Notes under the pieces: model-generated
The model's input: only the letters and a program-made list of their open reading frames with translations
The model's database searches: none
Told to the model about the DNA's origin: nothing
Program-made: the position numbers and the translations under genes
Origin: Takakia lepidozioides
Taxonomy: Eukaryota > Plantae > Bryophyta
Assembly: GCA_030704615.1 (NCBI GenBank)
Contig: CM060732.1
Coordinates: forward strand, 43,834,001 to 43,898,000
Length of the DNA: 64,000 bases
Direction: 5' to 3'
Shown: positions 6,440 to 40,936 of the stretch, piece after piece
How positions within the stretch are numbered: position 1 is the first letter of the stretch
Layout of the letters: each line of letters starts with the position of its first letter

Positions 6440-8690
6440 TCTGCCAAAAATGATCACTCCTCAGTTCACATTTCAGTGACAACACCCGGCTTTAGAATGA
6501 AAGGCAGGGGGCTACTTCAAGCTCAACCCAACTTTTCTAAAGGATCAAGAGGTTGTTAAAGCTCTGGAAAATGCGTGGACAACTGTTGTTACTCCCTTCC
6601 ACTCACCCACAGCTCGATTCCTGGCAAAGATGCGTATATTGAGGAACCTCTGTCAGGATATATCCAGGGAGAAAGCTGAAGAAAGCAATTGCAGGCAGAA
6701 AGCTTTGACAAAATGTCTGGAGGTATGCCAGTACCAATTGCAGACGGGAAATGAGGGCCCATACACAATGACGTCCTACAGACTTGCCAAAAGGAATCTA
6801 TCACTTCTGTTGCATGCCAGGGAGAACTTCATGAGTTAATTGGTCACTAAAGGGCGAAAAAATGACAAAATACTTCTTTACCAAAACAGCACAAAGGAGA
6901 ACAGCGACTCTGGTACCGGCCTTGCATGATCCTGACACTGGATTGCTGGTCGAAGACCCCAAAAAGATGGCATCGGTGGCCGCAAGGTTTTTTCAGCATC
7001 TCTTCCAAGGGCAGCCCCCCTCAGATCAAAAAGACCATGCTATGGCGACTCTCATCAGCTAGGTCCCTTTGTGCTCGTGACAGGGAAAAAACAAGCCCGG
7101 CATCACCATTTGACATGTAGGAACTGGGAAGGGCAGTGGATTCTATGGCCTCTCAAAAATCACCAGGCCTAGACGGCCTCCCTATGGAGTTGTTCAAAGT
7201 TCTCTGGCAAGCTATAGGAGATGATTTCCTATCAATGGCCAATGACATCCTTCTAGCCCATGAGAGCCTCCACAGGGCTGAGATGAACAATCAGCCATTG
7301 GCGTTCCTGATGCTGGATTTTGAGAAGGCTTTCGACTCCATTGACTGGCCTTTTCTCCTGAAGGTTTTGGAAAAAACAGGGCTAAGGGGTCATTTCCTGG
7401 CATGGGTTCGGATACTGCTTCATTCGGCCTCTAGCAAGGTAATGGTTAATGGGGTAATCTCCAGATCCTTCCCATTATCCAGATCAGTACGACAAGGTTG
7501 TCCACTCGCCCCGTTCCTTTTCTTGATTGCGGCGGATTCACTGGGTCATCTATTGGACTCTAGACACGACATCATTGGTCTTCAATTGCCCACCTACAGG
7601 CCCGAAATGCTGAAATTATCTATGTATGTAGATGACACGGTGCTCCTACTAGACAATACAAGGAAAAACAACATAGACAAAGCGCTACATGCCCTCCATA
7701 CTTTTTGCATTGGATCAGGCCTAAAAGTGAATTAGGGAAAGTCCATGGGAATCCTCTCCTTCCTGCAAGATGGGGCTCCCACAACACATTGTCAATCATG
7801 GGGCCAAGACCTTGGTTTAAGGTGGCTACAACCGAGGGAGTCACACACCTTGCTGGGTCACCAGATGGGCATACATCTTACGCAGCACAACCGAATGAAA
7901 GAGGTGCTTTCCAAACTTAAGAGAAGCCTGGCTTTTTGGAGCTCGACAATGCTTTCTATAGTGGGCAGAGCACTAGTAGCCAATCAAGTTCTGGAAGGCT
8001 CGCTATGGTTTTATGCTGCAGTATGGGACCTAGAGGCTGCCCTTCATAAGGAGATAAGAGCCCTCATTAGAATTTTCATCTGGGGGGCCACCCCCACTAC
8101 GCCATTGAGACGGGCACTAGTCTCATGGGACCAGCTGTGCCAAAAGAAAAAGCGGGGAGGCTTGGGAATTTTGGACATGCAGCTCAGATCAAAGCACTAA
8201 TGGCAAAATGGATACCGAGGGCAATAAAACACAGGAGTACTCCCTGGAGCAAACTCATTCAGCCTTATTTGATGGGGTCTATCCCCGCATCTTCTCCCCT
8301 CTGGGCTCATTCTCTCAAGTGGATTGTCCAAGGTAGAAATGCAGGAATTAAGCTAGGTTCCAGACCATGGCAAACAATTTGGAAAGCATGGCATGCCCTG
8401 AGGGGCAATCTCACGCAAAGAATGTCTGCCGCTATACAAGAATGCTTCCGCCAGTCACTGTTCATCAACTTCAACATGGACTCTACCCCTCTGCTGAAAC
8501 ATACCCCGGCCTGGGCTTTTTTGGAAGGGAAAGGCTTCACCCACATCGCCTATATTAGAGAGCAGGACCAGTTCTTGACGGAGGAGCAAGTCTCTACATC
8601 CCTGGGTGGAAGAAGGTCTAGAGCTTGGAACACTGTCCTGTCAAATATCCCACAATACATGATGCCCATCCTTGATGGGGGGTGCTATTC
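6440..8690 (+). mobile_element. Decayed L1-clade LINE ORF2 fragment (end of APE endonuclease, RT with internal deletion, post-RT region)
   Basis: SDQHP..GYFKLNPTFL (endonuclease end), KSPGLDGLP, LDFEKAFDSIDW, RQGCPLAP, YVDD, KKRGGLGI. Stops and frameshifts present; the segment between FLSMAN and DILLAHE is missing. Confidence 0.9.
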
Positions 8691-10724
8691 TGTGAGCCCG
8701 GAGGTGTGAGCCTGTGAGCCCAGGAAACCGTGAGCCCAGCACAGGCTCACGCCACGTCAGCATGCATACAGGGCCTATTTCCGCGGGTGTCACCTATTAC
8801 CGCAGGTTGATCAGCCATTTCCCGGACCATCATTTCTATACATTGCATCCATCTAGGCGTTATCAACATACCAAGCCCCCTGCATTGGAATGTGGGTACG
8901 TCGTGAGGAGGTGCACACTGACATCATCCAAAGCGGATTCCTGCGAAATCTTTCCTTACTCACCACCCTTGCGAACATGCCAGGTATGTGCGAGAGCATC
9001 ATGGATGCTCACCAGATTTGAGAATGCCTGAACGTTCTTTGATCACGTGGACTTCACCGTGATGGATTTACCAATAGCAGGAATGGTTTGGAGACCAACG
9101 AGCAAATGATGCGAGAATGCTCTACACGAACCAAAGTCATTTGTTTGTTTTTGCAATGCACTCAAGCCTGTGAGGTCCGCAAAACACTAAATAGATTGAA
9201 AGAACAATCCGGGCAGTCCATGCAACCCCCATCTCCAACAATAGTTTGTTCCCATGAATTTGCATCCCACGCACACATTGCAAACAGGACAACAAGGACA
9301 CACAACCATCCCATTTCAAATTTGGCCCCGAATAAAAGCAAAAGAAAACTTCATATCAAGTGTCACAGTCATCAGAATCTGTCTCGACCTCCTGTGCTAT
9401 GTCATCCACAAAGATTCTGGCCCCAACACCACGTCTTCTACCACGGTCGTCGATGGGTGGACTGCGAGTGCCATGAACGGACATGCTTGCTGCGAGTGCC
9501 TCCGCATAGACAGGTAGCACGTAAGACCGAGGAGGACTTGAAAGAAGTCCAAATAGGTGTGATAGCCCTGGAGGGTAAGTGGAAGCACACGGACTCCTGC
9601 ACAAGTCGACAAAAACTCATTTTGAACACAATGATGCAATGCACAAGTCCAACGAAGAGGATGTCTCCCATGTGCACTTTGCCTCAAGAACAGTGATTCT
9701 GGATATTGAAACAACAATGCAAACATCCACAGGTTGAACTTACTCACAGGCAAAGTCGGAGTCCAGCTCCTTGTCGGAAGTCTCCCCTATATCAATATCA
9801 CCGGGAAGGGGTTTCAGAAGGACTTGAGAAGTGTGTCCACCCAAACCCATCGGAAGGTTCTTGTAAATCTCGGCATCCCCTTCAATCCCAAAAAGATGTC
9901 GCGCACTGGCCTTGCAAGCGTGGTACAAAGCACCTGCAGTGGAATAGAATGAAGGAAACAGACATTGAAGACACATTTGGAACGGTGGGAAGTGCTGAAA
10001 GTGCAAGCTCAAACAAACCTCATGAAATGTGAATGTTGAAGAGACGAACCTGTGCCCATTGACAAATCTTGTGGTTTTTGCTTGAGAATGAGAGAAACCA
10101 GGTTGTTATGCAAGGAGCACCGTGGAGCTCTTGGTTGTTAGAAGCGGAGACGATGTGGGTTACGAGGTGCTAGACCTTGGCATTCGATTTTCAGCTCAGA
10201 GATGAAAGCACCATACTGCAGGTAATTCCAGAGCACCTTGATGGTTTCAAATTGTGTACATGCATGAGCAAGCACGATTGGGAAGAGGACCAGTCAAGAG
10301 TAGGTTATAGTGGCTTTGGTGGCAAAGCTGAGAACTGGACTTGGGAATGCGAGCTTTCATTGTGTGAAGGATTGCAAGACCAAGCGAAAGGGCTGATTTG
10401 GCTTGGGGCAAATCAGTGCACTTTGTGGAGTATGTTGAGAGTGGGTTTCAATCTCGAGCTTCAGCATTGAGAGGGCTCTTGTCATGGCAAGAGCAGGGCT
10501 GGAACAGGAGCTATGAGGTGCGGCAAGGCCATGGAATGTGCACCTAGGGTTTCAGAGCTTGGAAGAAGAGCTCTTGCACCACAAGAGGAGTGTCTTGTGG
10601 TTGGAAATGTAAGCCTTAGGGTTTCAGGAGCTTGGCAAAGGCTGTGGAGTGCTTAGTCTTGTCTTAGAGAGCATCAAGGAGCCAAGGAGCCAAGATAGGG
10701 GGCTGATACCTCTTGTATGAAGAG

Positions 10725-11035
10725 GTTGCATGTGTAGAGCATGTATTCAGCTCAAGCTTGGAGGGCAAGCAAGGAAGAGGGAAGGGCTGACTTCCCTTAT
10801 GTGAGGGCAATGCATGTGTGGAGCATGTTTTCAGCCTGTTGAAGGCTTGTACTTTCAGGTTTGGGAGTGCAAGAAAAGAAAGAAGGGGCTGGTTTCCCTG
10901 TAGGGCATGTGTGGAGCATGCTTCCAGCCCGCTGAAGCTTGTATTTTCAGGTTGGTGGGTGCAAGAAAGGAAGCAAAGGGGCTGATTCTCTTGTGGTGAG
11001 AGTGGGGCATGTGTGGAGCATGCCTTTAGTCCATT
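10725..11035. repeat. Four degenerate ~85-100 bp tandem units with core GCATGTGTGGAGCATG
   Basis: Core at ~10728, 10812, 10905 and 11007 with similar flanks (cagcc..gaagcttgta..ttcaggtt..gcaagaaagg). Confidence 0.8.
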
Positions 11036-11528
11036 GGGCTTTTGTTTTCAAGCTGTAGAGAACTAGAAGAGAAGATAAGGGGCTCTTATGTGACAGTTCG
11101 ACACTTGTAGAACGTGTTCTTAGTTGGGGTTTCAACCACAAGCCTAGATAGAGCATGGCTCTTGAAGTGGCAGATGTAGGGGGCTGGAATAGGCTCTAAA
11201 ACAGATGTTATGGCCAAGGAAAACATTTGAATGAGTGCTCACAAGGGCTGGAAACCAGCAAGGCTTGGCTGTTTGCCATTGAGTTTGGTGGCGTGTTTGG
11301 GGAGTCTAAGTGAGAAAGAATGCTTGGTTTGTGGCAACCATCTTCCTCATGGCTTAGGGCTACTATTGGTGGTGTGTGGGAGCCAAAAGAGCAAGAATAC
11401 CTTGCTGATTTCTTCACAGCCACCATAGCTCGGTGCAAAGAAGCCTAGAGTCCAAGAGACACAAACCCTAGCGTGGCGTGGCTAAACCCCTTGGAGAAAT
11501 GGCTAAACTGCCATGAGTGGCCATGGAT

Positions 11529-12544
11529 GGGCTGTGAGGGGCTGTGGCGGGCTGTGACAGGCTGTGCCCAGTGGCCTGTGGGGCTGTGACGGGCTGTGAC
11601 AGGCTGTGCCCAGTGGCCTGTGGGGCTGTGAGGGGCTGTGACAGGCTGTGCCCTGTGGCCTATGGGGCTGTGACGGGCTGTGGCGGGCTGTGACAGGTTG
11701 TGCTCAGTGGCCTGTGGGGCTGTGAGGGGCTGTGAGGGGCTGTGACAGGCTGTGCCCTGTGGCCTGTGGGGCTGTGACGGGCTATGAGGGGCTGTGACAG
11801 GCTGTGATGGGCTGTGGCGGGCTGTGACAGGCTGTGTCCTGTGGCCTGTGGGGCTGTGATGGGCTGTGACAGGCTGTGGTGGGCTGTGCCCTGTGGCCTG
11901 TGGGGCTGTGACGGGCTGTGACACGCTGTGATGGGCTGTGAGGGGCTGTGACAGGCTGTGCCCTATGGCCTGTGGGGCTGTGACGGGCTGTGAGGGGCTA
12001 TGGCCTTTGGGGCTGTGACCCCTGTGACCTGTGTAGGGCTGTGACAGGCTGTGCTATGTGGCCTGTGGGGCTGTGACGGGTTGTGAGGGGCTGTGACAGG
12101 TTGTGGCGGGCTGGGACAGGCTGTGCCCTGTGGCCTATGGGGCTGTGATGGGCTGTGAGGGGCTGTGGCCTTTGAGGCTGTGACCCCTGTGACCTGTATA
12201 GGGTTGTGACAGGCTGTGCCATGTGGCCCGTGGGGCTATGAGGGGCTGTGAGGGGCTGTGACAGCCTGTGGCGGGCTGGGACAGGCTGTGCCCTGTGGCC
12301 TGTGGGGCTGTGACGGGCTGTGAGGGGCTGTGGCCTTTGGGGCTGTGACCCTGTGACCTTTGTAGGGCTGTGACAGGCTGTGCCTGTGGCCTTTGGGGTT
12401 GTGATGGGCTGTGACAGGCTGTGACATGTGGCCTTTGGGGCTGTGACGGGCTGTGACAGGCTGCGGCCTGTGGGGTTGTGACCCTGTGACCTGTGTAGGG
12501 CTGTGACAGGCTGTGGCCTATGTGGGGCTGTGACGGCTGTGACC
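11529..12544. repeat. G-rich minisatellite, 10-11 bp unit (G/A)GGCTGTG(AC/AG/GC/CC) with higher-order blocks
   Basis: About 1 kb of continuous GGGCTGTGAC-like units. Confidence 0.95.
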
Positions 12545-13269
12545 AGTGAGTTGTGTGGGCCTGTGCTGGTTTGTGGTGGCCCGTGTTGACCTGTGGACGG
12601 CCTGTGCTGACTCGTGGAGGCACTTGTGGATTGCCTAAGGACTGGCATGTGCCGAATTTTGAAGCTCGTGGAGGGCGGTTTGAGGAGTATCTTCATGATA
12701 TTCCATGGTCATGCAAGTGAGGGAAGAGAGGAGAGGAAGAGTGTTGGGATGAGGGCATGCTGGGGTTAGGCATTGCTTTACCTTCTCTTCCTCGTAGTTT
12801 CCACCCTCTCATTAGGCCAAGACCTTTCCGTAGGTGGAGGCAAGAGTCAGTCCGGATTTGGGCTGGGGTGTCCTTGCAGGAGCAACACCGTGGAGTTGTT
12901 TTTGGTGTGGGGGAGTTGTCGTTCTGATTTCTTGTGTTTGGATCCCCTCCATACCTGCATGCTTGACTGTGCGCCATGCTAGTTTTGTGTGGGCGCTTGT
13001 TTTTATAGGTGATTGGTCCGGATTTGATCACCGGCCAGTCCTAGAGCATGTTGTTGATGGTGAGGCTGGGGTGATAACCAGCCAGACCATCATTGTTTCT
13101 CCTATGGTGAGGTTGGAGGTGATGACCAGCCAACCATAGGAGTGCTTGCGGTGGATGCAGGTACAGGTGTAGGCTATGTTAGGAACTTAGTATTCCAAAC
13201 CATAAGCCGCAACAGGTTCTCTACCCGGTTACCTTGTGGAGAGGGGGTTAGAGACATGTTCATGACCGG

Positions 13270-14364
13270 TTGAGTGTCAACACGGACGTGCCACTAGTTG
13301 CTGGGGACAGTGCTGGTTCGAGCATTAGTGATACTAGTGGGTACACGAGACGAGGTGTGCGGTTTAGGCCACCTTCACCTCCTGTGTCTTCTACAGAAGG
13401 TTCTGATTTGGATTGTGAATCAGGAGGACTCATACCGGCGGTGCAAGTTGTTTCCTTGCCATTGTTGTGGGACACAATGGAGGAGATGTATGGAGCTACC
13501 AAGGGGCCACGAAGGTACTCTGGGGCGGTGGGCACGATTGAGTTGGATGATTTTATCCAAGAGTTTGATAGTTGGTGTGATTTGCAGCAAATGCGCAATC
13601 CACAACTATGTACGCCTTTCATGGCATGGAAGGGGCTGTTTCAGCACCTTGAGGGGCCGCCTATGGATGATTACCATGAGTTCAGGCGGGGGCATGAGGT
13701 TGAGATCGATTTTGCTGGCAGAGCGGATAGAGCTCAACATGGTGGAGGAACGAGTGGTCATGGTGGGATTTGCTAAGGAGACACCACAGGGTAGTAGTGC
13801 TCCTAGCCAATCACTACCTCAACGTGCTCAAGGCAACAAGGGGGCTCATGTGAAGTTCAGGGAAGGGAAGAGAGGACCTCAGATGCAGGGGTCTCTCCCT
13901 TCATTTGCTGGCCAACAACGGGCGGATGTGGTGTGCTGGACATGTGGAGGACCCCATGTCAAGAAGGATTGCCCAGAGGGAGGCAAAGGCCGACACATGC
14001 ACAGCCTGCACAGTTGCAGTGTGGGCATTGTGGCAAGCACGGGCATGGAGAGGCCCAGTGTTATGGTTTGCATCCCGAGTTGCGCCCAGGCCAGTTCCAA
14101 GGGAACAATGGTGGCCGGGGGCGAGGGGAAGCAGCCCAAAGAGGACGAGATGGCCAGGTACGGGGTGTAGGCCAAGGGCAAGCTCAACATGGCCAAGGAC
14201 GCGGAGGTCAGGGTGTTGACCAAGGCATGGCCAACCGGCTTCAGCAGCTAGAGCAGAGGCTTGCTGCCATGGCTACAGCTCAGGTGGTACCGGCTCCAAG
14301 GCCGGATGGTCCACCTCCTGCTCCTGAGGGAGGAGATATGGAAGGCATGGGATTCATGTGCTGA
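13270..14364 (+). pseudogene. gag: Gag (capsid largely deleted near 13708) with two zinc knuckles
   Basis: CWTCGGPHVKKDC (CX2CX3HX4C) and CGHCGKHGHGEAQC (CX2CX4HX4C), followed by a G/Q/R-rich segment; frameshifted. Confidence 0.8.
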
Positions 14365-14949
14365 GCAGCACTACCACTAGTGCAGGTGGAGTCTGCTGCA
14401 GCCGTGACTCAAGGAGTAGCACAAGTTCCTGAGCCACGAGATGCAGAGGTGGAGTTGGATCCACAGCGTGGGGAGGCAAGCTGTCAGGCTAGGCTTCCTC
14501 AGTCATTCACATTGACGGAGACAGTGTTGACGCCATCCATGGCACCTAGTTCTTGCCCAACTGTTACCGAGGCGGAGGTTATTATGCCATTGGGGAGAGC
14601 TACACGGGTAGCACCACTACCTAGTGTTGCCAAGGCTACGACAGCTAGTGTGCTGCTGGGAGCGGCCACATCTGTGTGTCAGGCTCCATTGTTCTCGGCT
14701 ACCATGATTGCGACGCCGGGGGTAAGACCAGCTGAGGTGTTCAGGCTGGCAGCTACACTTTGTGAGAGTGGGGAGGTTACTTCATCTTCTGCGGAGATAG
14801 TGGGAGGTGTAGTGCCGGAGGGATCCTCGGATTTGAGGGTCAAGACTGCCACGGCGGTGCCATGGCAAGCTGCAACTGCCAGGTTGATGGAGCTTCCGGC
14901 TAGGCCAGCCATTGAGCGCGCCATGGTGACACCTGGAGTTGTCATGTTA

Positions 14950-15330
14950 GACAACCAAGATGACATTTTCTGTTTGAGTGGACCGGCAGGCAAGAGGTAC
15001 CGGCCACTGCGGGTTTTGTTGGACTCAGGAGCTCAGCCATTGATACTGGGCAGATCTGCTATTGCAGGCTTGGGCCTCACGGAGGCGGATATGGAGTCTT
15101 GTCATTTCCAGATACAGACGTCTCTGGGAGGATCGGAGCAGGCTCGGGGCATGACACGGCGTGAGTTGGCTATCAGACTACGGCCGGATCACCCTACAGA
15201 TGGCTCAGTGATGCGAGCCAAGACCATTGTGACAGACGCGGTCTCGTACGATATCCTGGTTGGTGGGGCAATGTTGTACCCCATGGGCTTCACCCTGGAT
15301 TTTTGGGAGGAGTCAGCTTCCTATAGGCCT
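14950..15330 (+). pseudogene. Retropepsin aspartic protease domain
   Basis: RVLLDSGAQ (DSG at 15022-15030), flap IQTSLGG, YDILVGGAML. Confidence 0.88.
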
Positions 15331-15732
15331 GCATGGCAGTCAGGGAAGGGCCGGCGTGTGCAGCTCCGTGTGACGTTCATAGGAGAAGTTGCGGTTGCCC
15401 AGCGAGGCAAGATGCCGACACTAGCAGCATTCACAACGGCAGTGAGTTGGCCTGGAGAGTTGTTTGAGGGCAACGCTCATTTAGAGGATGTGCCACCTCT
15501 GGGAGAGCAGGATGACATGTATGGTATGGCGGAGTTGCCTACCATGGTTGCTCAGACTCTATTGTGGGGCACGAGTAAGGATTTGCAGCGGGATGTTGAT
15601 TGACGGGTGCAACAAGCCTGGGTGGAGGCTTTTGTACCGTCAGGAGAGGAGGAGAGTGCGGGGATTGCACCAAGACCACCTCAGTTGTCTCCATTGGACA
15701 CCCCACCTATTGTGTGGCAGTATCCGGATGAA

Positions 15733-16670
15733 GGCATTTGTCTTCTGGACTTGTTTGGCGGGATCAGCACCGGATTGACTGTTGTGTTACAGGCTGGTGT
15801 ACGAGTTCGGCGTTACCTGTATGTGGAGAGGGATGAGACTGCACGACGCGTTTCACTTCGCCATGTTACTCAATTGGTGTAGCGGTACCCTAAGTTGTTG
15901 CCAGTGTCTGCAGTTCGTGGATATCAGCAGGCCTTGCCAGCAGATATTTCGTTGCTGGGGGGGGCAGGATTTGGAGCGGGTTGGCTCCATTGATCTAGTA
16001 GTGGCAGGTTGGCCCTGCCAAGGACATTCATCAGCCGGGCATGACAATGGATTGCGAGACTCGAGGTCGGGTCTGTTTTGGGAGATGGTGCGGGTTTTGC
16101 GCCACTTACAGCTTCATCAAGCTGTATCTCCAGCATACATCTTGGAGAATGTGCCACTGATGGGCGATTCTCGGGCCAGGGTGATGGCCAGTGTGCATCA
16201 AGTCCGGTCATGGCTTGGGTCAGCAGTGTTGCTAGATGCAGCTACAGTGGGGTCACGGGCTCATCGTCCACGGCTATGGTGGACTAACTTGATGCCACCC
16301 GCACTGCTCAAGCGTGCATTTGATGGGGTGCAGCGGCCAGCACATCTCACAGTGGATAGCATTCTGGACACAGGAAGGCAGTCTCAGCGTGTGAGACATG
16401 ATGATCGTTTGCCTTTGGCAGGTCAACCACGAGCAACATTACCTACACTGCTCAGCTTCCCAGGATCGCATGCTTTCCGGGATTGTGGACCTGACCTACT
16501 GTGGGATGCTTAGTTGCAGCAGTTAGTGGAGCCTAATGCTGACGAGCGTGAGCGGGCAATGGGTTTTACCACTGGTACCACGACGGTGCCGTCTCTTTCT
16601 GAGGCAGCACGTCGTCAGGTGTTGGGGCAAGCAATGGATCTCAATTGCTTGACCTGCATTACCAGCTTGG
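15733..16670 (+). pseudogene. C5 cytosine DNA methyltransferase, DNMT3-like, embedded in the retrotransposon pol
   Basis: Motif I LLDLFGGISTG, II YLYVERD, III ADI, IV DLVVAGWPCQGHS (PC 16013-16018), V SGLFW, VI YILENV (ENV 16145-16153), VIII DAATVGSRAHRPRLWWTNL, IX ERERAMGF, X RRQVLGQAMD. Two TAG stops (15880, 16511) and a frameshift at or near a G8 run (15957-15964). Confidence 0.93.
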
Positions 16671-17157
16671 CTATGGCTGAGCAATGCAGAGTGCGGAGTG
16701 CACTTCCCTCGCTTGTCTCTCTGCCTACCGAGACGGTACAGGCAGTGAGTGGGGGCGAGCATGTGAGGACCACGGGGTGTAGGCATCCATGGCACACGTG
16801 GGAGGTGCTTGAGGTTCAGAGGGAGTTGGCAGCCAAGGCGGCTGTGATGGATGAGGTTGGGGATTCTTCTCGGGTTGAGGAGGTCCTCAAGGATGAGATG
16901 ATGGGGCAGGATGAGGCCTTGTCATTGACTGAGCAGGCAGGGAGTACTGCTCAAGAGGTTGCATCATAACAACCACGGGACGCGTCCTCTACCTCTAAGT
17001 CTGCTGGACTTAAGGTTGCAGTTACGAAGGGCAATTGGGAGCCTGTCATTGGACCTATTGTCACTAGAGGAGAGAGACGACCTATACGGCGGTTCTTGAG
17101 GCTTACAAGAATTTCTTTGCCTCTCGTGCTACGGTGGAGGAGCATGAAAGACATGTT

Positions 17158-18660
17158 CAGGTTGTGCATCGACCGGGTTTGGTCAATAGGGATGCGGATG
17201 GATTGAGTCACAATCCATGCACAAGCCAGCAAGATGAAACTGGAGCTCGGTGGCATGGTGAGACGGACGAGGAGATGGTGTCGGGATGGCATGCATCTGC
17301 CTTTTTGTGTATCTTGGCATTGGGAGGTCAGGTTGGACCTACAACAGGGATGATTGTAGACGGAGTGTCTGAGGACCCTGAGGCTAGTGATGAGCCAGGT
17401 GGTGCCAGAGATATACATGAGGATTTGGTTGTGTTGAACTACCTCCGCACTGGAGACACGACAGCTAGTGTGACTGCGAAGGAGAGGGATCGGATCCTAC
17501 AACGAGCCAAGAGGTTCAAATGGGAGGGGATACACCTGCTTCGAGTGTGGGAGGATGGTCGGGTGATGATCGTGCCTCATCCAACACAGCGTGCATGGTT
17601 AGTGCGGCATGTCCATGAGGAGTTGGGGCATTTTGGAGTGCGACGCATTCATAGTTTACTACAGGGGCAGTATTGGTGGCGTGGTATGCACAAAGAGGTG
17701 CAACAGTTTGTGGCTAGGTGCATGGTGTGTGACAGGGTGTGTGCTTCATTCAACGCCCCTACACCACAGTTGCATCATTTACCCATCATGGGATTGGGCT
17801 ACAGGTGGAGTCTTGACTTCGCAGGGCCTTTGCCACTGACGATGCGTCACCACAGATATGTGTTGGTGATGGTGGAGCACTTCTCCAAGTGGATTGAGTT
17901 GGTTCCATTGCTTGACAAGGCTAGTGAGGGGGACTGCGTATGCATTCCTGGATCGTGTGCTTAGCTGATTCGGTGCTCCAGCTGAGGTACTCACGGACCA
18001 AGGGAGAGAGTTCTTGGGGGAGTTTCAGGCTTTGTGTGATAAAGCCTTGATAGACCACCGTACCACTTCTCGGGATCATCCTGAGGCCGATGACTTGGCA
18101 AAGAGAGTGGTGCAGACGGTGAAGATGGGTTTGCGCAAGTATGGCTTGCAAAAATGACACCTAGGAGATTGGGATCTTCAGGTACCTTGGCTAGCTATGG
18201 GTTACAGGTTTAGCAAGCAAACATCACTTGCCTCCTTTTCACCATATTTCCTTCTCTTTGGCCGAGAGCCAGATTTGCCTGCGTCTATTTGCAGGGAGGC
18301 TGCAGTAATCCTCAACCTTGATGATCCGGATGTGTGGACACAAGCATGTGCCCAGCGGGCAGAATTGTTCAAGAGAGTTATGCCTATGGCTTTTGAGAAT
18401 CTTGCTATTGCCCAACACCGAGACACATTGAGGTATGCCACTATACGTGGAGAGGGATATCGGCCAGATCTTCGGCGTTTCCACCCTGGGGACTATGTGT
18501 ATCTGCAGCAGACAGCGCCTACGACCTTGGATGTCACAGCAGGACGTGTGATTCTAAGGGTCAGGGAGGTGTTGCCTTCAGGAGTGTAGATTCTGGAGGG
18601 TCGAGATGACATGGTATGGAAGGACCATGTGCGTAATTGTGCGCCATGTCACCTTCCACA
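17158..18660 (+). pseudogene. RNase H C-terminal remnant and DDE integrase
   Basis: QVVHRPGLVNRDADGLS (RH end); HHCC HEELGHFG..CMVCD; WSLDFAGP, LTDQGREF, HPEADDLAKRV (catalytic E mutated to K); SPYFLLFGREP; FHPGDYVY. Confidence 0.92.
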
Positions 18661-18712
18661 TGTGGATGGGATGATAGATCCCAACCTTGCAGTGGTACCT
18701 ACAGGATTGCAT

Positions 18713-18856
18713 TGCATGCTATGTGGGCATGCTTGTGGTGCCGCCACTATGCTGGTGTGTGATCGATGCTCAAGAGGTTGGCACATGGGATGCTTGACAT
18801 CACCTCTTGAGAGGGTTCATGATGGAGATTGGTTATGTCCACACTGCTTGGGATAG
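18713..18856 (+). pseudogene. PHD finger at the integrase C-terminus
   Basis: CMLC..MLVCDRCSRGWHMGC..DGDWLCPHC is a canonical C4-H-C3 with the conserved W; it lies in the integrase frame apart from a TAG at 18587. Confidence 0.92.
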
Positions 18857-19116
18857 TGGCAGTGGATATGACTAGTGGCAGCTCACAAGACTTGGGAGAC
18901 CAAGCTCATATGAGTCAATATCCAAGATCTCAGGCTCAAGTTCACAGGTTGCAAGATGGCGACTAACGATGGGGCAACTCTTGTACCCGACCTCTTGATC
19001 TATTGAGTTTGAGTGTAGTAGGGACAGTGGTGGAGGACTTAGTGAGGCTATGGTCACTATCACATCTTGTGGCTACCTGGACTTAGAGGGACCTAAGCAC
19101 CAGCTAGGGGGGCGAT

Positions 19117-19304
19117 TGTGTGGACTAGTGACTGCCATAGTAGGCAGCATAGTGGCAGCCTAGTGACTGACTAGTTGTAGTCTAGTGGTTGGACTAGTGG
19201 TTGGACTAGTTGTGGACTAGTGATATACTAGTGTGTGGCGTGCACATGTGTTGTGTGGTTTTGGACAGCGATGTAGTTGTGTAGCGATATGTATGCGCAC
19301 GACA
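19117..19304 (+). repeat. LTR-like repeat copy 1 (TGT...ACA) immediately after the polypurine tract
   Basis: Starts TGTGTGGACTAGTG, ends GCGCACGACA, preceded by AGGGGGGCGAT. Confidence 0.7.
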
Positions 19305-19625
19305 ACTGTCAAGTTATTTTACCACTAGTGTGAAACTAGCTAGGAAATAACTAACTTTTACATATTGACATTTGGGATTGGCCCAAGTGTCAGTCCAGGG
19401 GTCAAGACAGATTTATGCCTTGGAGTGGTTATCTTCACGGCAAGCGTGGAAGGCTCATCTTTCTCGAGTTGAGCCTCATCGCGCCTAGCTATGGCGCCGT
19501 AGTGTGGATTCCCCATGGCGTGGGGTGCACTTGGCTTGACTTGTATTTGAGTGATGAGGTTATATATGCATGAGTTTATGCTTCAGATTTGTGAGCTCGT
19601 GCTTGTATTCTTCATCTTTATCTAT

Positions 19626-19801
19626 TGTATGGACTAGTGACTGCCATAGTGGGCAGTATAGTGACAGCCTAGTGACTGACTAGTTGTAGCCTAGTGGTTG
19701 GACTAGTGGTGGATTAGTGATATACTAGTGTGTGGCGTGCACATGTGTTGTGTGGTTTTGGACAACGATGTAGTTGTGTAGCGATATGTATGCGCACAAC
19801 A
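19626..19801 (+). repeat. LTR-like repeat copy 2 (TGT...ACA)
   Basis: Near-identical direct repeat of 19117-19304, slightly shorter, 321 bp downstream. Confidence 0.75.
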
Positions 19802-20583: not shown

Positions 20584-23025
20584 GCTATTGAGCACCACCA
20601 TTGAGCACTCTACTATCAATATACCACTATTGAGTATTGTACCAACGTACCATTATTGAAGTCCACTAAGGTCTGAGAGCCAAGCTTACCACTATTGAGC
20701 ACTATACCAGTATATTACTATTGAGATCTACTGAAGTCTTAGAGCCACTAGAGAGTTTGCTTGAGCCTTGGAGCACGTATATGAAAGATGGACATGTTTT
20801 AGGGTTTAAAAGGAAATGAAGGGCAACTGGCATCGATTCTCCAAGCTAGACTTGCTAGTAAGAATACTAATAGTTATCAATAATTTGTACTGTTCTTTTA
20901 TAATTTTTACCTTCTTTTGTCAGGTTTTTTTTTTTCTTTTTGCCTTCACTGTGACGGACAATGTTTTGTCAATTCTTTTGATAGGCAATTTTTTTTGTCA
21001 TTTTTTTTTGCCATTTCAAAGGTGTTGTGACAGGTGCAAAAAACAACCTTAAGTTATAGTAAGGGTGATCAAGGTTTGTTGCCCCCCTAACTGACCCCTT
21101 TGTCTTTTCTTGTAGGTGGCCCGTAGCCTTGCATAATGCTATTGATTTTTATCCAAACTAAGCTATATTTTAGGAGAGAGGATGAATTTTGACATCTTCA
21201 TCTAAAACTTATATTAATTATCACTTAAGGTGTCATGGCCCACATAGCAAATTGGCGCCAATAGTTTAGTGGGGCAAAATGGACAGTCCATGGAACCATC
21301 CTTTCTCATTTTTAAGGGGCGGTTGCTTATTGGGGGGGGGATTGGGAGTACCCATGGAAGCTGGCCCTTACACTATATGGCATGTGGAACATAATCCGCC
21401 CTCGAGATTTTGCATAGTATATTTTTATGGAGACTATTAGATAGAATAGCACAGCTATGGCGACCAATGCATTCCATGTCGCGTAAATGCCCGTTCTCCA
21501 AGATCAGTGCATTGTGCGGCATGGAATGCACTACTTATACCAGTATCCGGAAAAAGATACCTCATGTATGAGTGATCTAAAAAGGCCGCCCCTCGGACTT
21601 CATTGCCTTATAGGTGTCAGGAGCAACCACAACTAAAGGATTTTTTCTATAAGATGAGAATGGGAATGTGTTTAATGGTGGATGTGGTTGTGGGACACTG
21701 GAGTTTTGTCATGGAAATCTCTATGCCGTCATCCCTGTTAGTCAAGAGCAGCTAAACACATTTCCCAAGTCATACAAATCTTTCTTCAAAAACAATCTAG
21801 TGTAAAAGCTTCCTCTTCTTCCACTTCTTCCACCTCTTCTTTTAGTGTTTTCTTGACATGCCAGGGGATCTTTTCAAGAATAAAAAGCTTGAGCCTCTTG
21901 AATTTAGAATCTTTCCGTGGAATTTTAACACCCTTACACCTAGCTTTGGAATCTTTTCTTAAGATCCTTGCAAGCGTCAAAGCGTCAAAGCGAGACGATT
22001 GTTAATTCCCCCCACCCCCTTTAGTCGTGCCATCAGCCAACACTGCTGCCCAAAATCCGGAGCATATTCCAGGCTTTTCTGTCTGTATGTCGCAATTTCT
22101 TCCGCAAGAGTTGCCATATCTTTCTGCCATCCGACCCGCCTACATTATTTCCCTTACTGTGGGTTACTTGGACAAGAATTAGGAAGCTATTGGGGATTGA
22201 AAAAGAGCCATAGGGAGCAATTTATGTACTAAAACCAACTTGTAGGATGCTGAAAGGAAATTTCTTGAGGACTTTCCATAACCGGACTCATGGGACATTC
22301 CCCAGGAGCATCAGATGCTTTGTAACAGGAGATTGTGGATGAAAAACATTCGTCCCTTATGGGAACGTCCCCATCCACAGTACACATCCAATTCCTATGT
22401 TTCAACTACCTTACTTGGACGACGCACATCTATTGGGGATGTACACTTCCATACTCTACATTCATCACTCGCACTCTGCAAATAATGAAAGCAGGATCGG
22501 ATGTACAAGGATGCTTTGTGGATGAACTGTGAATGAACGCCTAATGGATGCTCAGCGGACGAACGCGCTCTGAATGGATGCTGATGGATGCCTACAGATA
22601 TGTGAATATGGATGCTTGATGCTCAATAGATGCCTTTAAAGATGCTAAATGGAACAACGGAGGCATGAATTGGAGCGGAATGGATCAAAGGATGCTGAAA
22701 CGATGCTATTATCCGATGACCTAGTTCTTCTTGATAGGCTGACAAGATGGATGGATGATTAATGGATGTGGCAGTAGGGGAGTGGATGGATGAGCAACGC
22801 TATCCACACACGGGGCAGGGGCGGGGGCCGTCGGATGTGGAGGGAGAGCGAGGGAGATGCGGAAGAGAGGCAGGCAGAGTGCGAGGTGTGTTGGGGCGAG
22901 TGTTGAGGAGGGGGTTTCTCTCCTTCCATTCGTGTGGGAGGGAGTTAAGGGATTGCAGCTTAGAGGAAGCTGCAATTGTTGCAATCGAGGAGGTGCTTGT
23001 GGGATACTGCAAGACCAAGCCAGCA

Positions 23026-24334
23026 ATGGCGGCTGTGCTGGAGGTCGGCGTGGCCGCATGCAGAGCTTTGCCGGTAGCGTCGTCTGGATCTTCAGCGATG
23101 GGATTGGCATCGCCGTTGAGACTGCAGGGATGCAGTGGGAGTTCGTTCCCAGTCTGCAGAGGTCTGAGGATTGGTCTTCGCAGCAGGTCCCGTCCAGCTG
23201 CGGTTGGTGGCACGTCCCAGTCGTCTCAGCGTTCTGTAGGAGTCGTTGCCGAAGCACAGGAAACCGTGACAGGAGGTATGTGGTCAAGTTTGTGTAGTTG
23301 CTATCACCTTGTTCGTAGGGAGTTTTGGTTAATATCTCGTCGGGGACAGCATCTTCGTGTTCCGGTCCCCATTCTCGACCACTACTGTTTTTTTGGTTCT
23401 TGCATTGCTACCACTATAACCTCAGTTAAAGTTTAGGTAGGCTGATTCTAAGATTCCATGGCCACCACAAGGTCATTCAGAGTGTAGAGCCTGAGACCAG
23501 ACCCTTCAGCACTTTGCTCCAGGAAAAAGCTTTGGCACTGCCCCGGAGCTCCTAGAAAATATAGCGCCGTGAAGATTCCACTCCTGCACGCCTCTCTTCG
23601 CTTCTTTTCTTGTGGATGTACTCAATTATGGAAGCCCTAGGTCTACAAGGCAGGGAAACTTGGCGTTGTTAACTTTGACCTAGTCATGAAGCCAGCATAA
23701 TCTCTGGTTTTAGCAGCATTCAGAAAGTATCCCTTGCTCCTTGCTACTCCCTTTGACCTGCTGTGTTGCCACTCAGTGGAACCAGTGGGGATGACTCAAA
23801 ATTGACAAACGAAGCGGAACTATTTTTCACTAGTTGCTTTCTATTGGCAGTTGCTTCTTTACTTTGTTTCTGATTACTCTGTGCATTTGGCGCTTTGATA
23901 TCACTTCAATTTGTCTATTTGCATGCCATTACTTGAAGTTACCGTAGCACAGCATCAGCTGTTATGAATGGGGATGCAGTTTGTTCACCTAGTGTTGTTT
24001 CAATGTCGCAGCTGCAGGTATTGTATCAGACCAAACGTTCCAAAAGCTTGTGTTGGAGAGTGATATTCCAGTCCTGGTCGACTTTTGGGCCCCATGGTGT
24101 GGACCCTGTCGAATGATTGCACCTGTAATAGATGAACTTGCAAGACACTATGCGGGTAAGATTAAGTGCTTGAAGCTCAACACAGACGAGAGCCCCCACG
24201 TGGCCACTGAATATGGCATTCGGAGTATTCCCACTGTCATGATTTTCAAGAGAGGGGAGAAGAAGGACACAGTGATTGGAGCTGTGCCAAAGTCTACCTT
24301 GACAGTGACAATCGAGAAGTACCTTGATTGGTAA
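23026..24334 (+). CDS. TRXM: Plastid thioredoxin m-type; exons 23026-23275 and 24012 (or 24018)-24334
   Basis: Transit-peptide-like exon 1 ending [11 protein letters not shown]; [41 protein letters not shown]; GT-AG intron. Confidence 0.93.
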
Positions 24335-26349
24335 GGGGCCTTAAAAGTTTGAGAGCGGGGAGGCAGGCTGGCTGGGGGAAGAGAGGGCAGTTGATAGAAA
24401 CAAGTTCACTTTTTAATGCTGTGGCAAGTGCCAGAGTTATAAGGGCTGATAGGCACAATTGGGAGGGAGTTGGCTTCATGAAATTTTCTTTGTTCCTGAT
24501 CGTATATGTGGTTTGTGCTGGAAGTTACCACTTAATCTTCATTATGTGCATTTGCAGCTGCTTAGAAAAGTCTCACAGACAGCATATCTGTAATTTGATT
24601 GATTGAAATGTTATATGGAAAGGGACGAAAGGAGGCAATGTTCTTGATGAATATAGTAGTAAGTCAGAGCTTGAGCATACAGTTGTAAATGTTCTAGCTT
24701 TTTCTTGGGGATAAAACCTTTGGGCTTGACTAAAAGAAATCAATGGATATTTGTGGTTCAATTCGTGTTTGAAGTTTGTAGATCTGGATATTGATTTATG
24801 GGAATGGTTTTTCTGTTGATTTTCCATGTGTATCAGATGGGAGTCTGAAGTATGACACAGATCTGCCATCGGCAAAAGGGTCTGGGCTTCATAGCTAGGG
24901 CTCAGTGTGTAGGTTGGTCACTGTCATCAAGATCTTCAAGAGCATCCCTCCCCAGAAGTATTTATTATTGCTCTCTTGGTCAAGTTGAATCTTTTGGGAA
25001 GGGATTTATGTTTCACCGTCATGCTATGGCCCATTTCAACTGCAAAACAGGCAGCAAATGAATGCCTTTGGCTGTCTCTATTGGAGAAGACGAAGGGGCA
25101 AGGAATTGTGTAGTGATGTAGCTGTGCCTCTCTGTAATTGTGTCTCACTGTATATCCCTTTTTCAAGGTTAACTTTGATTGGATGCGGATTCTTTCTGTT
25201 TGGTTGTTAGAAGGGTGCAGTACATTAGTTCACTCGTGCCATGTATTCAGAGGCAAGGGTTGTATTTAACTTAATTGCTGAATGAATTCACACTTGAATT
25301 GTTTGGCTTTACAGAGGTTTGTTCCTGTGTGTCAACTGGCAGAGCACTTCCAGTCTCTTTCCAAGCCACTTTCCTGCGCCTCTGCTTTATACATGATTGG
25401 GTTGTAAATCTCAGAATGCGAAAGTACAGATTCTTCATTTTGTTTCCCAGGAATGCATAGAGTAATTAACATGTAAGAAACAGAGTTGTCTTCACGTCAA
25501 AAATTCACTTGTGGTCATCTAGGAGTTGGCCCATGCCCCTGTCCCTCTTCCATTCGCTCCTTCAGGATCAATTACGAAGGAGTCTGCTTTGTATTCGTGG
25601 AATGAGATATGGTAGGTACATCCCACCCTCAAGTATCGCTCTTACGGGAGTAAAAGCAGCAAAAGGTAGTTGGAAATTTGGAAAATAACAGGAGTGACAG
25701 TTGACTACCGAGTTTTGAAGGAAATAGCCCTATTTTCTGTCCATCCACTGCTGGATAGAATAATCCTCTTATGTAATTTCATCCATGTATATCATCCATA
25801 GTTGACAACTTCATCCCTTATTTCTATTTTATTTAGAGAAGTTCGGCGATTTCATCCCAGAGAAAACAGGGAATTTACGAAAGAATATTCGATTTTATTT
25901 TTTGAGGTCGAAATATTGCGACAATTCGAAATAAAAACACTGGTTGGAGCTCTGGTGTTTTGCGGAGTTTTCTTTTCTGTCCCTCCCAAAAAAGAAAAAG
26001 TTGGAAGATTTTCAGCCACAGTGATAGTCATCCGGAATTCATCCATCCAACCGAAGAGAATCGCTTATCCGGCAGCCTCGTCTTGTCCGACTCTCGCTTG
26101 CAGCGCAGGACCGCGGAGAAGAGCTCCACCATGGCTGCAGATTCAAGCGTGCCTTGCTGACCAGGTTGCTTACATGGCTGTGTAGTTCTCAATCTCAATG
26201 ATCGCTTATATGATATGTGTAATTCTGGGATTTGAAGGTGAGCAGAATTTTTCGGTTACATTGTTGGCTTTCTTCTCATCAGTCGAGGAGAAGGGGAAAA
26301 GGTGGATGCTGTAGCACGTAGTGGTGGTTAGGGTTGTCTGGCATCGACC

Positions 26350-29300
26350 ATGTTGCCCTCCCAATGTCTGTTGGGGCAGGCAACTGGTCCCCAGCCTGCA
26401 TTTCCGCTGTACTCGGGCCTCTCGCGGAACAGGTTTTGTTCTCCGAGGCCGGCGGCGGGGCTATCCACAAGTCTGGCATACCCTCGCCGAGTGAGGCAGC
26501 AGAAGAAGCATGCATGTAGGGCGCTTGAGGGACAGCTTCCAAACACCTCATCAAAGTCTTCGCAGAAAATAGGCATTTTCGGCACCCAGCAGGAGCTTTC
26601 AGGGCCTCAGAAGTTCTTGGAAGGCCTACCGGCATCAGCGAGGTATGCCACAAGTGCGGTGATTGTTGTGGGAGCACTGGCAGCTGGGTATGCACTTGGT
26701 GCCCGCGCCCGCGGGACCACGGTAGCTGCTGTGGGCGGAGCCGTTGCTTTGGGTGCAGTAGGGGGAGCCTCTGCATTTGCGTTGAATGCAGCAGCACCAC
26801 ATGTAGCTGCCATACAGCTGCGGAACACACTTGTCAATCACACTGACCCAGCCAACTTGCAACCAGATGAAATCGATGCCATTGCCAACAAGTGTGTCTT
26901 TGGCTCACCATTCTGCTTTAAGTTTGTCATAGCCATGCAGAAGGAATGTATATAGCTTCTGTTTTTCTTTTTTAATTTGATGTGTGTAGTTCCTTATAGA
27001 AAAGGAAGTTTGCTCATAAATTGCTTGAACGTCAAATTGATATACCGTCTGTTCTACCCCATGTTGATGGGATCTCATTTTCTTCTGCAAATGAGAGCCC
27101 ATAAAGATATGAATTGGTAGGGTTTTTCCAGGGGTTAAGTTAGCTTGTCCTATTCTAACCATCAAGTGATGTTGTAGTATAAAGTTAGCAGCGTCTTATC
27201 CATGGTGGGAATCTCAGAATCTCTAAGCCAGATGTGGGTGTGACGCCTGACTTGATTGCCTGAGGGGCACTCAGCACAATAGTATAAGCATGAAGAAGTG
27301 GTCAAGTGTGTGATTTTTGTCATTAGAGGAGGATTGGGATTTAGGGCAGCTCGTCTAGGAAGAGGATGGATGGCTATCTATCAGCAAGCTATGCACTAGT
27401 GGGTAGACAGGTTCCAAATGATTGAAGCATGCTGTGGCCGGTTTTGCGAACGTAATAAACCTGAGAATGTATTGATTTGCATTCAAAATATCAGAATTGA
27501 ATGAAGATGTTGATATTATGGGGTCCTCTCAACTTTTCAGGAGCGTTTCTCAACACTGAACTGAGAGATGTAGGCATACTAGATCTCCAACAAGCTTTTC
27601 ATGAATTGCTTATCTAGAGATTTGGGGTCTGATTGATACTAGACGTTCTGGGATGATATTCATGGAGAGTATGTGGGCGTAGGTATGGTGTAAGCAGACA
27701 GAATGAGCGCTTCAATGCAGAGCTGCGGGACCTATATAACCGGTGGGTACTTCATGAAGAGTTCCACCAGCAACTTTTATGTTAGTTTCTCTTGTCCATG
27801 CTGCAGCAGATGCCAGTGTTTGATTGGCATTTTTTGGTGAATGGGTGTACATCTGATGGTGAAATAGTGTATGATGTGGCATATCCCATAGCTATCTCTG
27901 TCTGTTCAAAGATTAGTTTCTGCAGTTACAATCCTATGTCATATTCATCCGCCTAATTTCCCTGGTAGCCACACATTGTGGTATCGGATGGCAGTTACGT
28001 GACAGGAATTCTGCCACCAGGCAATGAAGATCTGAAAGGAGATGAGGCAGATTCCATTACCTCTTTTAAAAATGCATTGGGTTTGGATGACCCTGATGCT
28101 GCCAGCGTGCACATGGAGGTGAGCAGTTTATCTGAAGACCTACCATATTTGACTCCCACTGCATTTGAAGTCCCCATTAGGAACTCCCACAGTCTATCTT
28201 CTGGTAAGCAACTGCTTGGCAGGGTCCCGGTCCCATTTCCATTCGTAAATCTACAACTGACCCAGACACTGGGAGATTAGTGAGAAGTACTGTCAAGTGG
28301 AGGGAGCATGGCATCGTACACGTGGAGAATCAATCTCAGAGCAAGGCGCCTCTTTGTGGTGCTGCAGATTGGTAGGCGCATATCCAGGCAACGATTGGAG
28401 ACTGGTGACAAAGAGGGTGCGGTTGAAGAGCGCAGGGTATGCATCATCTCCATCTATTGCATTTTGTTGGGGTTCAGGACTGGTAGGGGTGTTTCCACAG
28501 GTGTATGGGATAAGAGATTCTGGACAAGTGTTACCCTAAGGAATGTTCTGGACTTTATTCGGAATTTGTAGACCATTAAGAACAACCCAATTGAGCTTTA
28601 TGCTGCCATGCTTCCTTGCCAAGAAACACAGCTTCTAAACCACTGCTGTCTAACAATTATATTTCCTGAGCTAGATAGAGCTCATATTTACCATAAATAC
28701 CCACCACTGTAGCCTGGCACTACCACACCATATGGAACTCCCCGACAGGTGACGATAGTTGAGTGTGTTCGAAATCGCCAGTGAAATTGTCAATGGAGAG
28801 ACCTTCTATGGATGCCTAGAGCTTGGGAGCTTCTGATAACTACTCGTTTTCATAGTTGCAGTTCTAGATGTTGACTATGGGTTAACATGCTGCCATGCTT
28901 GCAGACATTTCAAAAATTGGTGTATGTGTCCACACTGGTTTTTGGAGAGGCTTCCAAGTTTCTTCTTCCATGGAAGCGTGTCTTCAAGGTGACTGATTCA
29001 CAGGTAAGGGTCTTCTCTATGTTGGTAACTTCAGAGTAGCATGCCAGCAGTTCACAGGGTTTGAGAAAGAACAGGAGGGCGATTCATGACATCATGCACA
29101 GGGTGTTACTTGCATTGGGAGGGAATCTTCTATTTAAGTAAGGAACAGCTGGTTCTGTGGTTCTTGTTTTTCTGAAGACTAAGATTTTGATGTGTCCTGA
29201 GTGCAGGTGGATGTGGCCATCCGTGACAATGCTCAGCGCCTCTTTACTTCTCATTTGGGTACCCTTGGTACTGGTAAGCTGTTAGGACATCCTCACAATG

Positions 29301-40600: not shown

Positions 40601-40936
40601 CAACCGCTCGTGTCTATCAATGTAGGGCCTTGTGTCCTGTAACACACCCGAAATCATCCTGAACACCATCTCGAGGCTGTGCAGAGCAGGCCTGACTATG
40701 CACTCGTTAGGCCATACGCCGGGCCAAAGGCGAGTCTTGCGTAGCTTAGACAGCTCAGGAAGTCGAACGTAGAGCTCATAAGCCTCCACTCCATCGGCTG
40801 ATGGCTGGACCAGAGCATCAATATCAAAATTTGCCAGAGAGACTGAAAGCGGAGTCCCCGGAAACAACGCAGAATGCAGGCCCCCGGAGCCTCTCGAGCT
40901 TAATTTCCTGGCATCTATACCCCGGAAACTGACCAT
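37622..40936 (-). CDS. HSPRO: Nematode-resistance-like HSPRO/Hs1pro-1 family protein; exons 40936-40259, 39694-39379, 38656-38058, 37714-37622
   Basis: YELYVRLPELSKL, WPNECIVRPALHSLE, SQESLLPRLAAW, FTLGLGEPNLSGKPILEYD, MDPDDFMRLK, GVEADPKGGPRLQEA, IHLLQSFQAIE, FEPPYFPSLDGAKTFLG. GT-AG introns; the last exon is less certain. Confidence 0.9.

Follow-up and report, generated by a model that had tools for sequence, protein, structure and literature searches.

A decayed Ty3/Gypsy retrotransposon of Takakia lepidozioides carrying a predicted DNMT3-like methyltransferase ahead of a conserved stop codon

A 64,000-nucleotide stretch of the genome of the moss Takakia lepidozioides (GenBank assembly GCA_030704615.1, contig CM060732.1, positions 43,834,001 to 43,898,000; here, the window) contains a decayed Ty3/Gypsy retrotransposon at 13.3-19.8 kb on the plus strand, in which translation of positions 13000-19200 and Pfam scans recognised gag, an aspartic protease (PR), a C5 cytosine methyltransferase (MT), an integrase (IN) and a PHD finger. 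An original prediction, made from the sequence letters, had proposed a land-plant Gypsy element encoding a DNMT3-like enzyme within its polyprotein. In this paper, we report a computational analysis of the element, its relatives and the stop codon that separates its methyltransferase from the reverse transcriptase (RT). Judged by sequence comparison, the element appears to be a member of the KnitGypsy-Dnmt3 lineage, which reaches mosses, liverworts and chlorophytes, and not a separate land-plant capture; we hold the anatomy and family history described below with high confidence.

The element, its decay and its surroundings

All parts of the element lie on the plus strand. The N-terminal part of gag (13252-13710) shares 82% identity with residues 1-78 of Marchantia Mp4g09160 over positions 13477-13710 and ends at an internal deletion near 13710, where contigs from other copies have loose ends at 13709. 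The gag zinc-knuckle region and a Gly/Arg-rich linker follow at 13807-14364, with a stop at 14362 that is private to this copy. The aspartic protease (14911-15342) bears the catalytic DSG within LLDSGAQ, its Asp being at 15022, and the C5 methyltransferase with motifs I-X occupies 15706-16666, where the reading frame is broken and all 14 key residues checked are kept. At 16967-16975 lies an in-frame stop with a CARYYA 3' context, conserved in the family, which forms a candidate readthrough site at the boundary between open reading frame 1 (ORF1; Gag-PR-MT) and a frame for RT, RNase H (RH), integrase and PHD finger. The RT and most of the RNase H, about 1.25 kb, are lost at a junction at 17101-17156, and sequence comparison identified a C-terminal remnant of RNase H with its following linker at 17143-17316. 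The integrase (17554-18289), consisting of the H2C2 zinc-binding domain and the DDE core, has a frameshift near 17930 and a stop at 18155, and has at its end the PHD finger with the terminal stop after it (18713-18856); next comes a polypurine tract (19106-19115) that is kept in related loci.

The Pfam scan of the element covered 13 stretches and matched DNA_methylase at 50.6 bits (E 2.5e-13, cut-off 22), Integrase_H2C2 (E 3.6e-14) and PHD (E 1.5e-8). The protease (Asp_protease_2, E 0.022) and rve (E 0.018 and 0.0024) scored under the Pfam cut-offs because this copy is broken. No chromodomain was matched in the Pfam scans of the window element or of related proteins.

Beyond the polypurine tract the window holds only the 3' end of the element, arranged as B-A-B at 19116-19801. 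The first copy of terminal repeat B (19116-19304) ends in CACGACA; repeat A (19307-19623) starts with TGTCA, and a contig from an RNA run enters it at 19307 from other sequence; the second copy of B (19624-19801) is 89% identical to the first and closes the element on its 3' side, at which point contig depth falls. Neither the expected 5' copy of repeat A nor a matching target duplication was found in the window. For comparison we used metagenome loci, namely the best 80 of 288 relatives from a metagenome scan. Self-comparison of 25 of these 80 revealed a split layout, A-coding-B-A-B, in four loci of 9.1-9.3 kb with TGTC-like and GACA-like ends (L053, L069, L076 and L095), the rest being degraded or without an end; 4-bp target duplications flank three of the four (L076, L053 and L095), and the 5' end of L069 is degraded. 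Instead of two full identical long terminal repeats, as in ordinary Ty3/Gypsy elements, the family has split repeats. The B-A junction (19297-19311 in the window, and also in L076, L053, L069 and L095) consists of the right end, two bases and the left end, GACA-AC-TGTC, which resembles two integrase attachment sites joined together and bears on the origin of the split repeats. Upstream of gag, a G-rich, high-depth stretch (8700-13000) includes a tandem array of 10-base units (11512-12560) and ORFs without a Pfam match, and represents a different repeat or else an extended 5' part of a subfamily.

The window copy is dead, having stops at 14362, 15601, 15880, 16511, 18155 and 18587 and frameshifts near 15960 and 17930. 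Of these, the stops at 15880 and 16511 and the frameshift near 15960 lie within the methyltransferase, which also has a short in-frame deletion near 16421. The original prediction mentioned neither these methyltransferase lesions nor the gag deletion, the loss of RT and RNase H, the integrase frameshift and stops and the extent of the element to 19801; its observation that the protease frame continues over a single TGA held, as the TGA at 15601 keeps the frame from protease to methyltransferase and is a private lesion, homologues being open there.

Contigs of four DNA runs (one sample) and two RNA runs represented other copies in the species, and the RNA runs are of the same species, since the neighbouring thioredoxin gene is spliced in them and matches the window. 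The methyltransferase, protease and integrase have the same contig depth in the four DNA runs, and depth over the element lies thousands-fold above the single-copy flank and drops at about 19800; in run X3 the summed contig depth, which is not a copy number, is 42,000-147,000 for the element against about 10-18 for the flank. At position 15880 some 96% or more of the contig depth carries a different letter, and in each run 12-31 contigs are without the two frameshifting bases of the window methyltransferase, so that both the premature stop and the frameshift are private. The loss of RT and most of the RNase H is likewise confined to the window copy, since loose contig ends fall at 17101 and 17156, and an RNA-run contig of 2173 bases has 1303 letters between these points. 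Low-depth coverage of parts of the element by RNA-run contigs, which show neither expression level nor strand, gives a weak hint that the element is transcribed. In run X4 the depth over the coding part relative to the upstream 9.5-12.8 kb is far above that in the sister runs of the same sample, a library bias. Decayed host-genome copies show many Arg-to-His/Cys/Gln changes, as methylation by any enzyme would give.

Elsewhere in the window, a spliced thioredoxin gene lies at 22895-25215, both of its introns being visible in the two RNA runs, and exons of a TIC110 gene at 26332-34452. One TIC110 exon is 74% identical to Physcomitrium, 72% to Ceratodon, 71% to Marchantia, 66% to Diphasiastrum and 63% to Ceratopteris; in a tree of this exon with 19 of the 120 listed matches, which include no Sphagnum TIC110, the window is sister to Physcomitrium plus Ceratodon with a Shimodaira-Hasegawa-like approximate likelihood ratio test value of 96. 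Together with the separation of the element copy from the Sphagnum copies, this makes an early-branching moss the likely host. An HSPRO/Hs1pro-1 homologue is found on the minus strand at 40226-40960 (Pfam E 2.2e-38). Decayed mobile elements include the RT of a long interspersed nuclear element (LINE) at 7121-8709 and, on the minus strand, a DDE_1 transposase (49001-49963) and a LINE endonuclease fragment (53344-54072). A run of long ORFs at 55195-59646 resembles one broken gene; the two scanned had no Pfam match, and the run is possibly an unclassified transposon.

The methyltransferase and its family

In the window the methyltransferase motifs follow the canonical order (I LFGGISTG, IV GWPCQ, VI ENV, VIII AHRPRLWWTNL, then ERAMGF and RRQVLGQ) with neither the permutation of DRM nor the chromodomain insertion of CMT, between the protease and the RT position, as had been described originally. 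A family profile compared with solved structures scored 84.5 bits against DNMT3A, about 76 against DNMT3B, 45.2 against DRM and 27-29 against HaeIII, DNMT2 and HhaI, and single-sequence searches agreed. A structure model was obtained for a homologue, P0009, at a predicted local distance difference test score of 85, and not for the broken window copy. Foldseek placed DNMT3A as its top match (E 7e-20), and the fold Z scores were 27.9 for DNMT3B (278 residues), 26.7 for DNMT3A (270), 24.5 for M.MpeI, 21.9 for HhaI, 17.9 for ZMET2 and 9.8 for DRM2. By profile and modelled fold, the enzyme appears DNMT3-like, closest to DNMT3A/B and ahead of DRM, CMT, DNMT1 and DNMT2, which agrees with the resemblance first noted from its motifs. 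Among 150 representatives under 50% identical, the catalytic Cys is present in 147 of 148, the motif VI Glu in 149 of 150 and each of the two motif VIII Arg in 147 of 149. The CpG-reading segment of DNMT3A is not conserved in the element enzyme, and the context specificity is therefore not predictable. Domain mapping and Pfam found no targeting domain beside the methyltransferase. Phage DNMT3-like enzymes come near behind DNMT3A, the best of five (from 425 records) scoring 71.3 bits against 84.5, so that the donor may have been either a host DNMT3 or a phage DNMT3-like enzyme; no host DNMT3 was identified among the best 150 of the representative search.

Between the window and the 80 loci, the median proportion of synonymous differences was 0.76 (near saturation) and the methyltransferase had a nonsynonymous divergence (dN) of 0.25, between those of the protease (0.42) and the integrase (0.13), with a nonsynonymous to synonymous ratio (dN/dS) of 0.11 in 22 unsaturated pairs. 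These comparisons indicate that the methyltransferase is under purifying selection between lineages.

A methyltransferase search recovered 52 homologous proteins among 1886 candidates. Homologues occur in Calypogeia fissa (69% identity in the methyltransferase), Marchantia polymorpha gene models (57-76%, the best match at 68%), Sphagnum and Klebsormidium (KFL_009030040, 44%). A profile search yielded 37 further long polyproteins among 7970 candidates, one of them from Haematococcus lacustris; in a set of representatives at 50% identity, a profile matched 564 clusters with E values of 1e-30 or lower. A metagenome scan with a single protein query gave no match. Prokaryote genome collections gave one match, L098, with PR-MT-RT-RH on a contig in a cyanobacterial metagenome-assembled genome, which is probably eukaryotic contamination, and viral contigs contained only 17 weak generic phage-type methyltransferases of 24-57% identity over short stretches.

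Two domain orders emerged from domain mapping. The order gag-PR-MT-RT-RH-IN-PHD is found in bryophytes, Klebsormidium and several other proteins, and nearly all 80 metagenome loci have gag/PR-MT-RT-RH-IN; the order RT-RH-MT-IN-PHD is found in Haematococcus lacustris and 23 other polyproteins (P0059-P0084), and no description of it was found in the literature searched. Among the 150 representatives, 3 have the methyltransferase before RT, 70 have it after RNase H and 77 are uninformative. Related loci and proteins keep the Ty3-type order PR-(MT)-RT-RH-H2C2-IN with a DDE integrase, which together with the polypurine tract and the 4-bp duplications in relatives bears out the assignment to Gypsy. 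The methyltransferase is found family-wide, within the element coding frame and without introns or repeats of its own, and is thus not a neighbouring host gene, as the original prediction had argued. A divergent methyltransferase-carrying lineage (L087, L094 and L095) occurs in the same metagenomes.

Methyltransferase and RT trees of 38 elements are correlated (Mantel rho 0.57, with 0 of 2000 permutations as high, and 16 of 35 splits in common), which, given that kin share history, points to a long co-inheritance of the two domains and no more than that. FastTree grouped the Klebsormidium element with those having the methyltransferase before RT (support 99 for the methyltransferase, 87 for RT), and the 24 RT-RH-MT-IN-PHD elements form one side of a branch in both FastTree trees, which was not the case in the IQ-TREE run. 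An IQ-TREE of the methyltransferase with five phage enzymes as outgroup (46 rows, quick search) united the window, Sphagnum, Marchantia and Calypogeia in a clade (99). It also weighs against the family history proposed here, in that the basal branching of this phage-rooted tree is not resolved and a sister relation of Klebsormidium to the bryophyte clade lacks support. The window copy does not group with the Sphagnum copies in the methyltransferase tree, and the main metagenome group is placed with Sphagnum troendelagicum.

The closest known system is KnitGypsy-Dnmt3 of Klebsormidium nitens (PMC5890265). Like the present family, it combines the Gypsy domains with a Dnmt3-like domain free of introns, has split repeats of DIRS-like layout and shows purifying selection; KFL_009030040 is directly homologous and has its domains in the identical order, PR-MT-RT-RH-IN. 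It was described as an acquisition of the K. nitens lineage, whereas the lineage here occurs in mosses, liverworts and chlorophytes. Bryophyte members, moreover, have a conserved stop between methyltransferase and RT and so no single uninterrupted Pol ORF, other relatives place the methyltransferase after RNase H, and the PHD finger is unmentioned in the main text of PMC5890265. SymbioDIRS-Dnmt3 and SymbioLINE-Dnmt of Symbiodinium (PMC5890265) and, in the available part of bioRxiv 10.64898/2026.05.21.726589, the EpiLTRs of Cymbomonas and Euglena are likewise retrotransposons encoding C5 methyltransferases but have no DDE integrase with a PHD finger; the former belong to other retroelement classes, and the latter combine a DNMT4-related domain with DAM and a chromodomain. 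Gypsy polyproteins with a PHD finger are known from green algae, namely Gypsy-7a_cRei of Chlamydomonas (PMC9940879) and the Chlamyvir clade (PMC6317226), and in the available text of these reports carry no methyltransferase. Host DNMT3 enzymes (animal DNMT3A/B and Physcomitrium PpDNMT3, the latter from the accessible part of PMC6453930) are the best profile and fold matches and share the canonical motif order; the element enzyme differs in being only about 22-25% identical, in lacking PWWP/ADD or the plant DUF domain and in carrying some 18 additional residues inserted after motif II-III. The suggestion that early land plants could have obtained de novo methyltransferases from the element found no support, as the multi-exon host Dnmt3 falls with genes of animals and bryophytes, and the copies from elements form a divergent clade (PMC5890265).

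A 2019 hypothesis paper states, in its available part, that methylase-encoding transposons are absent from land plants such as tracheophytes (PMC6338049), and the accessible passages of PMC12344493 and bioRxiv 10.64898/2026.05.21.726589 say only 'streptophytes'. In agreement with the original prediction, no description of the element in embryophytes, nor of the stop between methyltransferase and RT, was found in the literature searched, outside which lie most subscription papers, Repbase reports and theses; the available parts of 10.1101/2021.11.30.470311, 10.1101/363937, PMC11244446, PMC13398078 and PMC10952607 contain none. The KnitGypsy-Dnmt3 lineage in land plants, the candidate readthrough architecture and the second domain order appear to be new, such Gypsy elements being known in print only from algae.

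The stop between methyltransferase and reverse transcriptase

In none of 67 loci are the methyltransferase and RT joined in one stop-free frame. The stop was examined in 63 linkers, of which 58 could be anchored and five could not. It stands at the same place in 54 of the 58 (36 TAG and 18 TAA), followed by CAACCC in 49, CAACCA in two (the window and L042) and one-change variants in three; in the remainder, L088 has lost the stop, L087 and L095 are without one and L094 has an unrelated stop. All 38 frame-intact copies have this stop codon, while no other codon is a stop in more than 5 of the 38, and the same frame continues open beyond it. UAG-CAR-YYA is a type I readthrough motif that also works with UAA, according to the available part of PMC3542737. 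The exact CARYYA occurs only in the window and L042, CAACCC in the 49 loci matching five of the six motif positions; in the window CARYYA follows 13 of 5433 stop triplets (0.24%). No stable RNA structure was detected 3' of the stop in five sequences (z -1.7 to 0), as expected for a type I motif.

Marchantia gene models are in keeping with this boundary. Nine end 81-83 residues past the methyltransferase domain, P0403, P0458 and P0017 end at 79-85 and a sister clade at 117-172, while other Marchantia models end earlier or join RT at varying points; four models are 98.5-99.1% identical to Mp4g09160 in the methyltransferase domain. In the available descriptions, single in-frame stops between upstream and RT-bearing frames are also found in tobamoviruses (UAG-CAR-YYA, PMC3542737) and in the elements Tca2 and VdLTRE5 (PMC3441728); here, however, the stop comes after protease and methyltransferase and not after gag, and Tca2 and VdLTRE5 are Copia elements without CARYYA.

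Several observations weigh against a general role of the stop. The lineage of L087, L094 and L095 and the full-length polyproteins P0043, P0067 and P0085 do without it, and hence it is not needed family-wide. Most of the 53 stop-bearing loci belong to one Sphagnum-clade family, leaving about four independent lineages overall, and that family has CAACCC, with five of six positions, and then an in-frame ATG. On balance, the conserved position and context make bypass of the stop by readthrough probable. In bryophyte members the methyltransferase ends the Gag-protease ORF, and so likely belongs to the abundant Gag-protease product and not to pol proper. The original placement of the enzyme within pol is thus right in that it lies in the element coding frame; 'part of pol' applies only to the presumed readthrough product.

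Proposed function and its alternatives

We propose that the DNMT3-like methyltransferase, as the end of the Gag-protease frame, would be made at Gag-like levels and packaged, with RT-RH-IN-PHD made at a few percent via occasional readthrough of the conserved stop. The element protease would free the methyltransferase inside the particle, where it would methylate the new double-stranded complementary DNA (cDNA) of the element before integration. New copies might then benefit by arriving marked, passing as host DNA or staying quiet under host maintenance methylation, and the PHD finger may steer integration. Readthrough as the bypass, protease release, DNA as the substrate, cDNA methylation, its benefit and steering by the PHD finger are the steps that we infer. 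By analogy, SymbioDIRS-Dnmt3 domains methylate CG de novo in yeast, and cDNA methylation has been proposed for SymbioDIRS-Dnmt3 (PMC5890265). Methylation of the element's own cDNA by its methyltransferase is the role we favour, with moderate confidence, and the whole explanation, from a dead copy of the KnitGypsy-Dnmt3 lineage to a packaged Gag-level enzyme, readthrough and cDNA methylation, we rate slightly above even.

A number of findings weigh against this explanation. The observed/expected CpG ratio is 0.53 in the methyltransferase region, not below the rest of the window (0.44-0.49), and thus leaves no footprint of self-methylation. Protease and methyltransferase share one stop-free frame in none of the 67 loci, those copies being dead, and dN/dS is 0.55-0.65 among close, dead copies. 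In 82 of 147 representatives Glu replaces the Pro before the motif IV catalytic Cys, which is unusual for C5 methyltransferases. The KnitGypsy-Dnmt3 domain gave no methylation in yeast, a result called inconclusive as DNMT3B failed too (PMC5890265).

Instead of methylating packaged cDNA, the enzyme could act once inside the nucleus, its targets being insertion-site chromatin, further copies of the element, or competing elements and viruses. Its high expected abundance with Gag would permit action in trans, the PHD finger offers a contact with chromatin, and an antiviral role of transposon methylases has been put forward as speculation (PMC6338049, available part). The PHD finger, however, sits on the integrase, the presumed low-abundance product, and not on the methyltransferase, which no targeting domain adjoins, and we consider nuclear action unlikely.

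The stop might also be bypassed by splicing, or the RT frame initiated separately, with the enzyme still in ORF1. The in-frame ATG after the motif in the large Sphagnum-clade family would suit initiation, and the Marchantia models P0004, P0012, P0019 and P0028 join methyltransferase to RT over a predicted intron. The ATG is absent, however, from the window, L042 and L079, the predicted joins vary between models, an RNA-run contig spans 16595-17101, stop included, without gaps, and the lack of a stable 3' structure is what a type I motif predicts; we regard these routes as rather improbable.

That the domain modifies RNA, either genomic RNA or primer, or only binds nucleic acid, and is no DNA methyltransferase in vivo, would fit the negative yeast assay, the Glu-Cys form of motif IV and the fact that a Gag-side product meets RNA first. 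DNMT2, however, falls far under DNMT3 in profile (28.9 against 84.5 bits) and fold (Z 20-22 against 27.9), and the Cys, the Glu and both Arg are almost invariant, leaving this reading with very little probability. The heavy rearrangement and missing RT of the window copy might suggest that this copy alone captured a host gene or received a nested insertion. This is ruled out, since the methyltransferase sits at the same position in dozens of loci as well as in proteins of liverworts, Sphagnum and algae, has a contig depth equal to that of the other domains and is free of introns and own repeats.

Carried further, the proposal of cDNA methylation would mean that a Ty3/Gypsy lineage already carried an active DNMT3-like methyltransferase before chlorophytes and streptophytes diverged, has retained it ever since and has shifted it from one polyprotein position to another. 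In bryophytes the enzyme would have come to precede a leaky stop, and would therefore be produced and packaged at capsid-protein level to methylate each new DNA copy; this we offer tentatively, as somewhat less likely than not.

Why a transposon should carry an enzyme that normally silences it has been an open question since 2018, the known cases being in organisms with little genetics. The methylase-bearing elements described here abound in a moss and also occur in two liverworts and in Sphagnum, and the unusual stoichiometry predicted from the conserved stop is directly relevant to function. Marchantia has several Gag-PR-MT gene models that are 98-99% identical in the domain and keep all motifs, which makes activity, substrate and effect on the methylome testable in a transformable plant; annotated as ordinary hypothetical genes, such models could also confuse methyltransferase inventories. 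If the proposed function is true, the young intact Gag-protease-methyltransferase frames of Marchantia would provide a model land plant with a live source of de novo methylation that is not the host's own.

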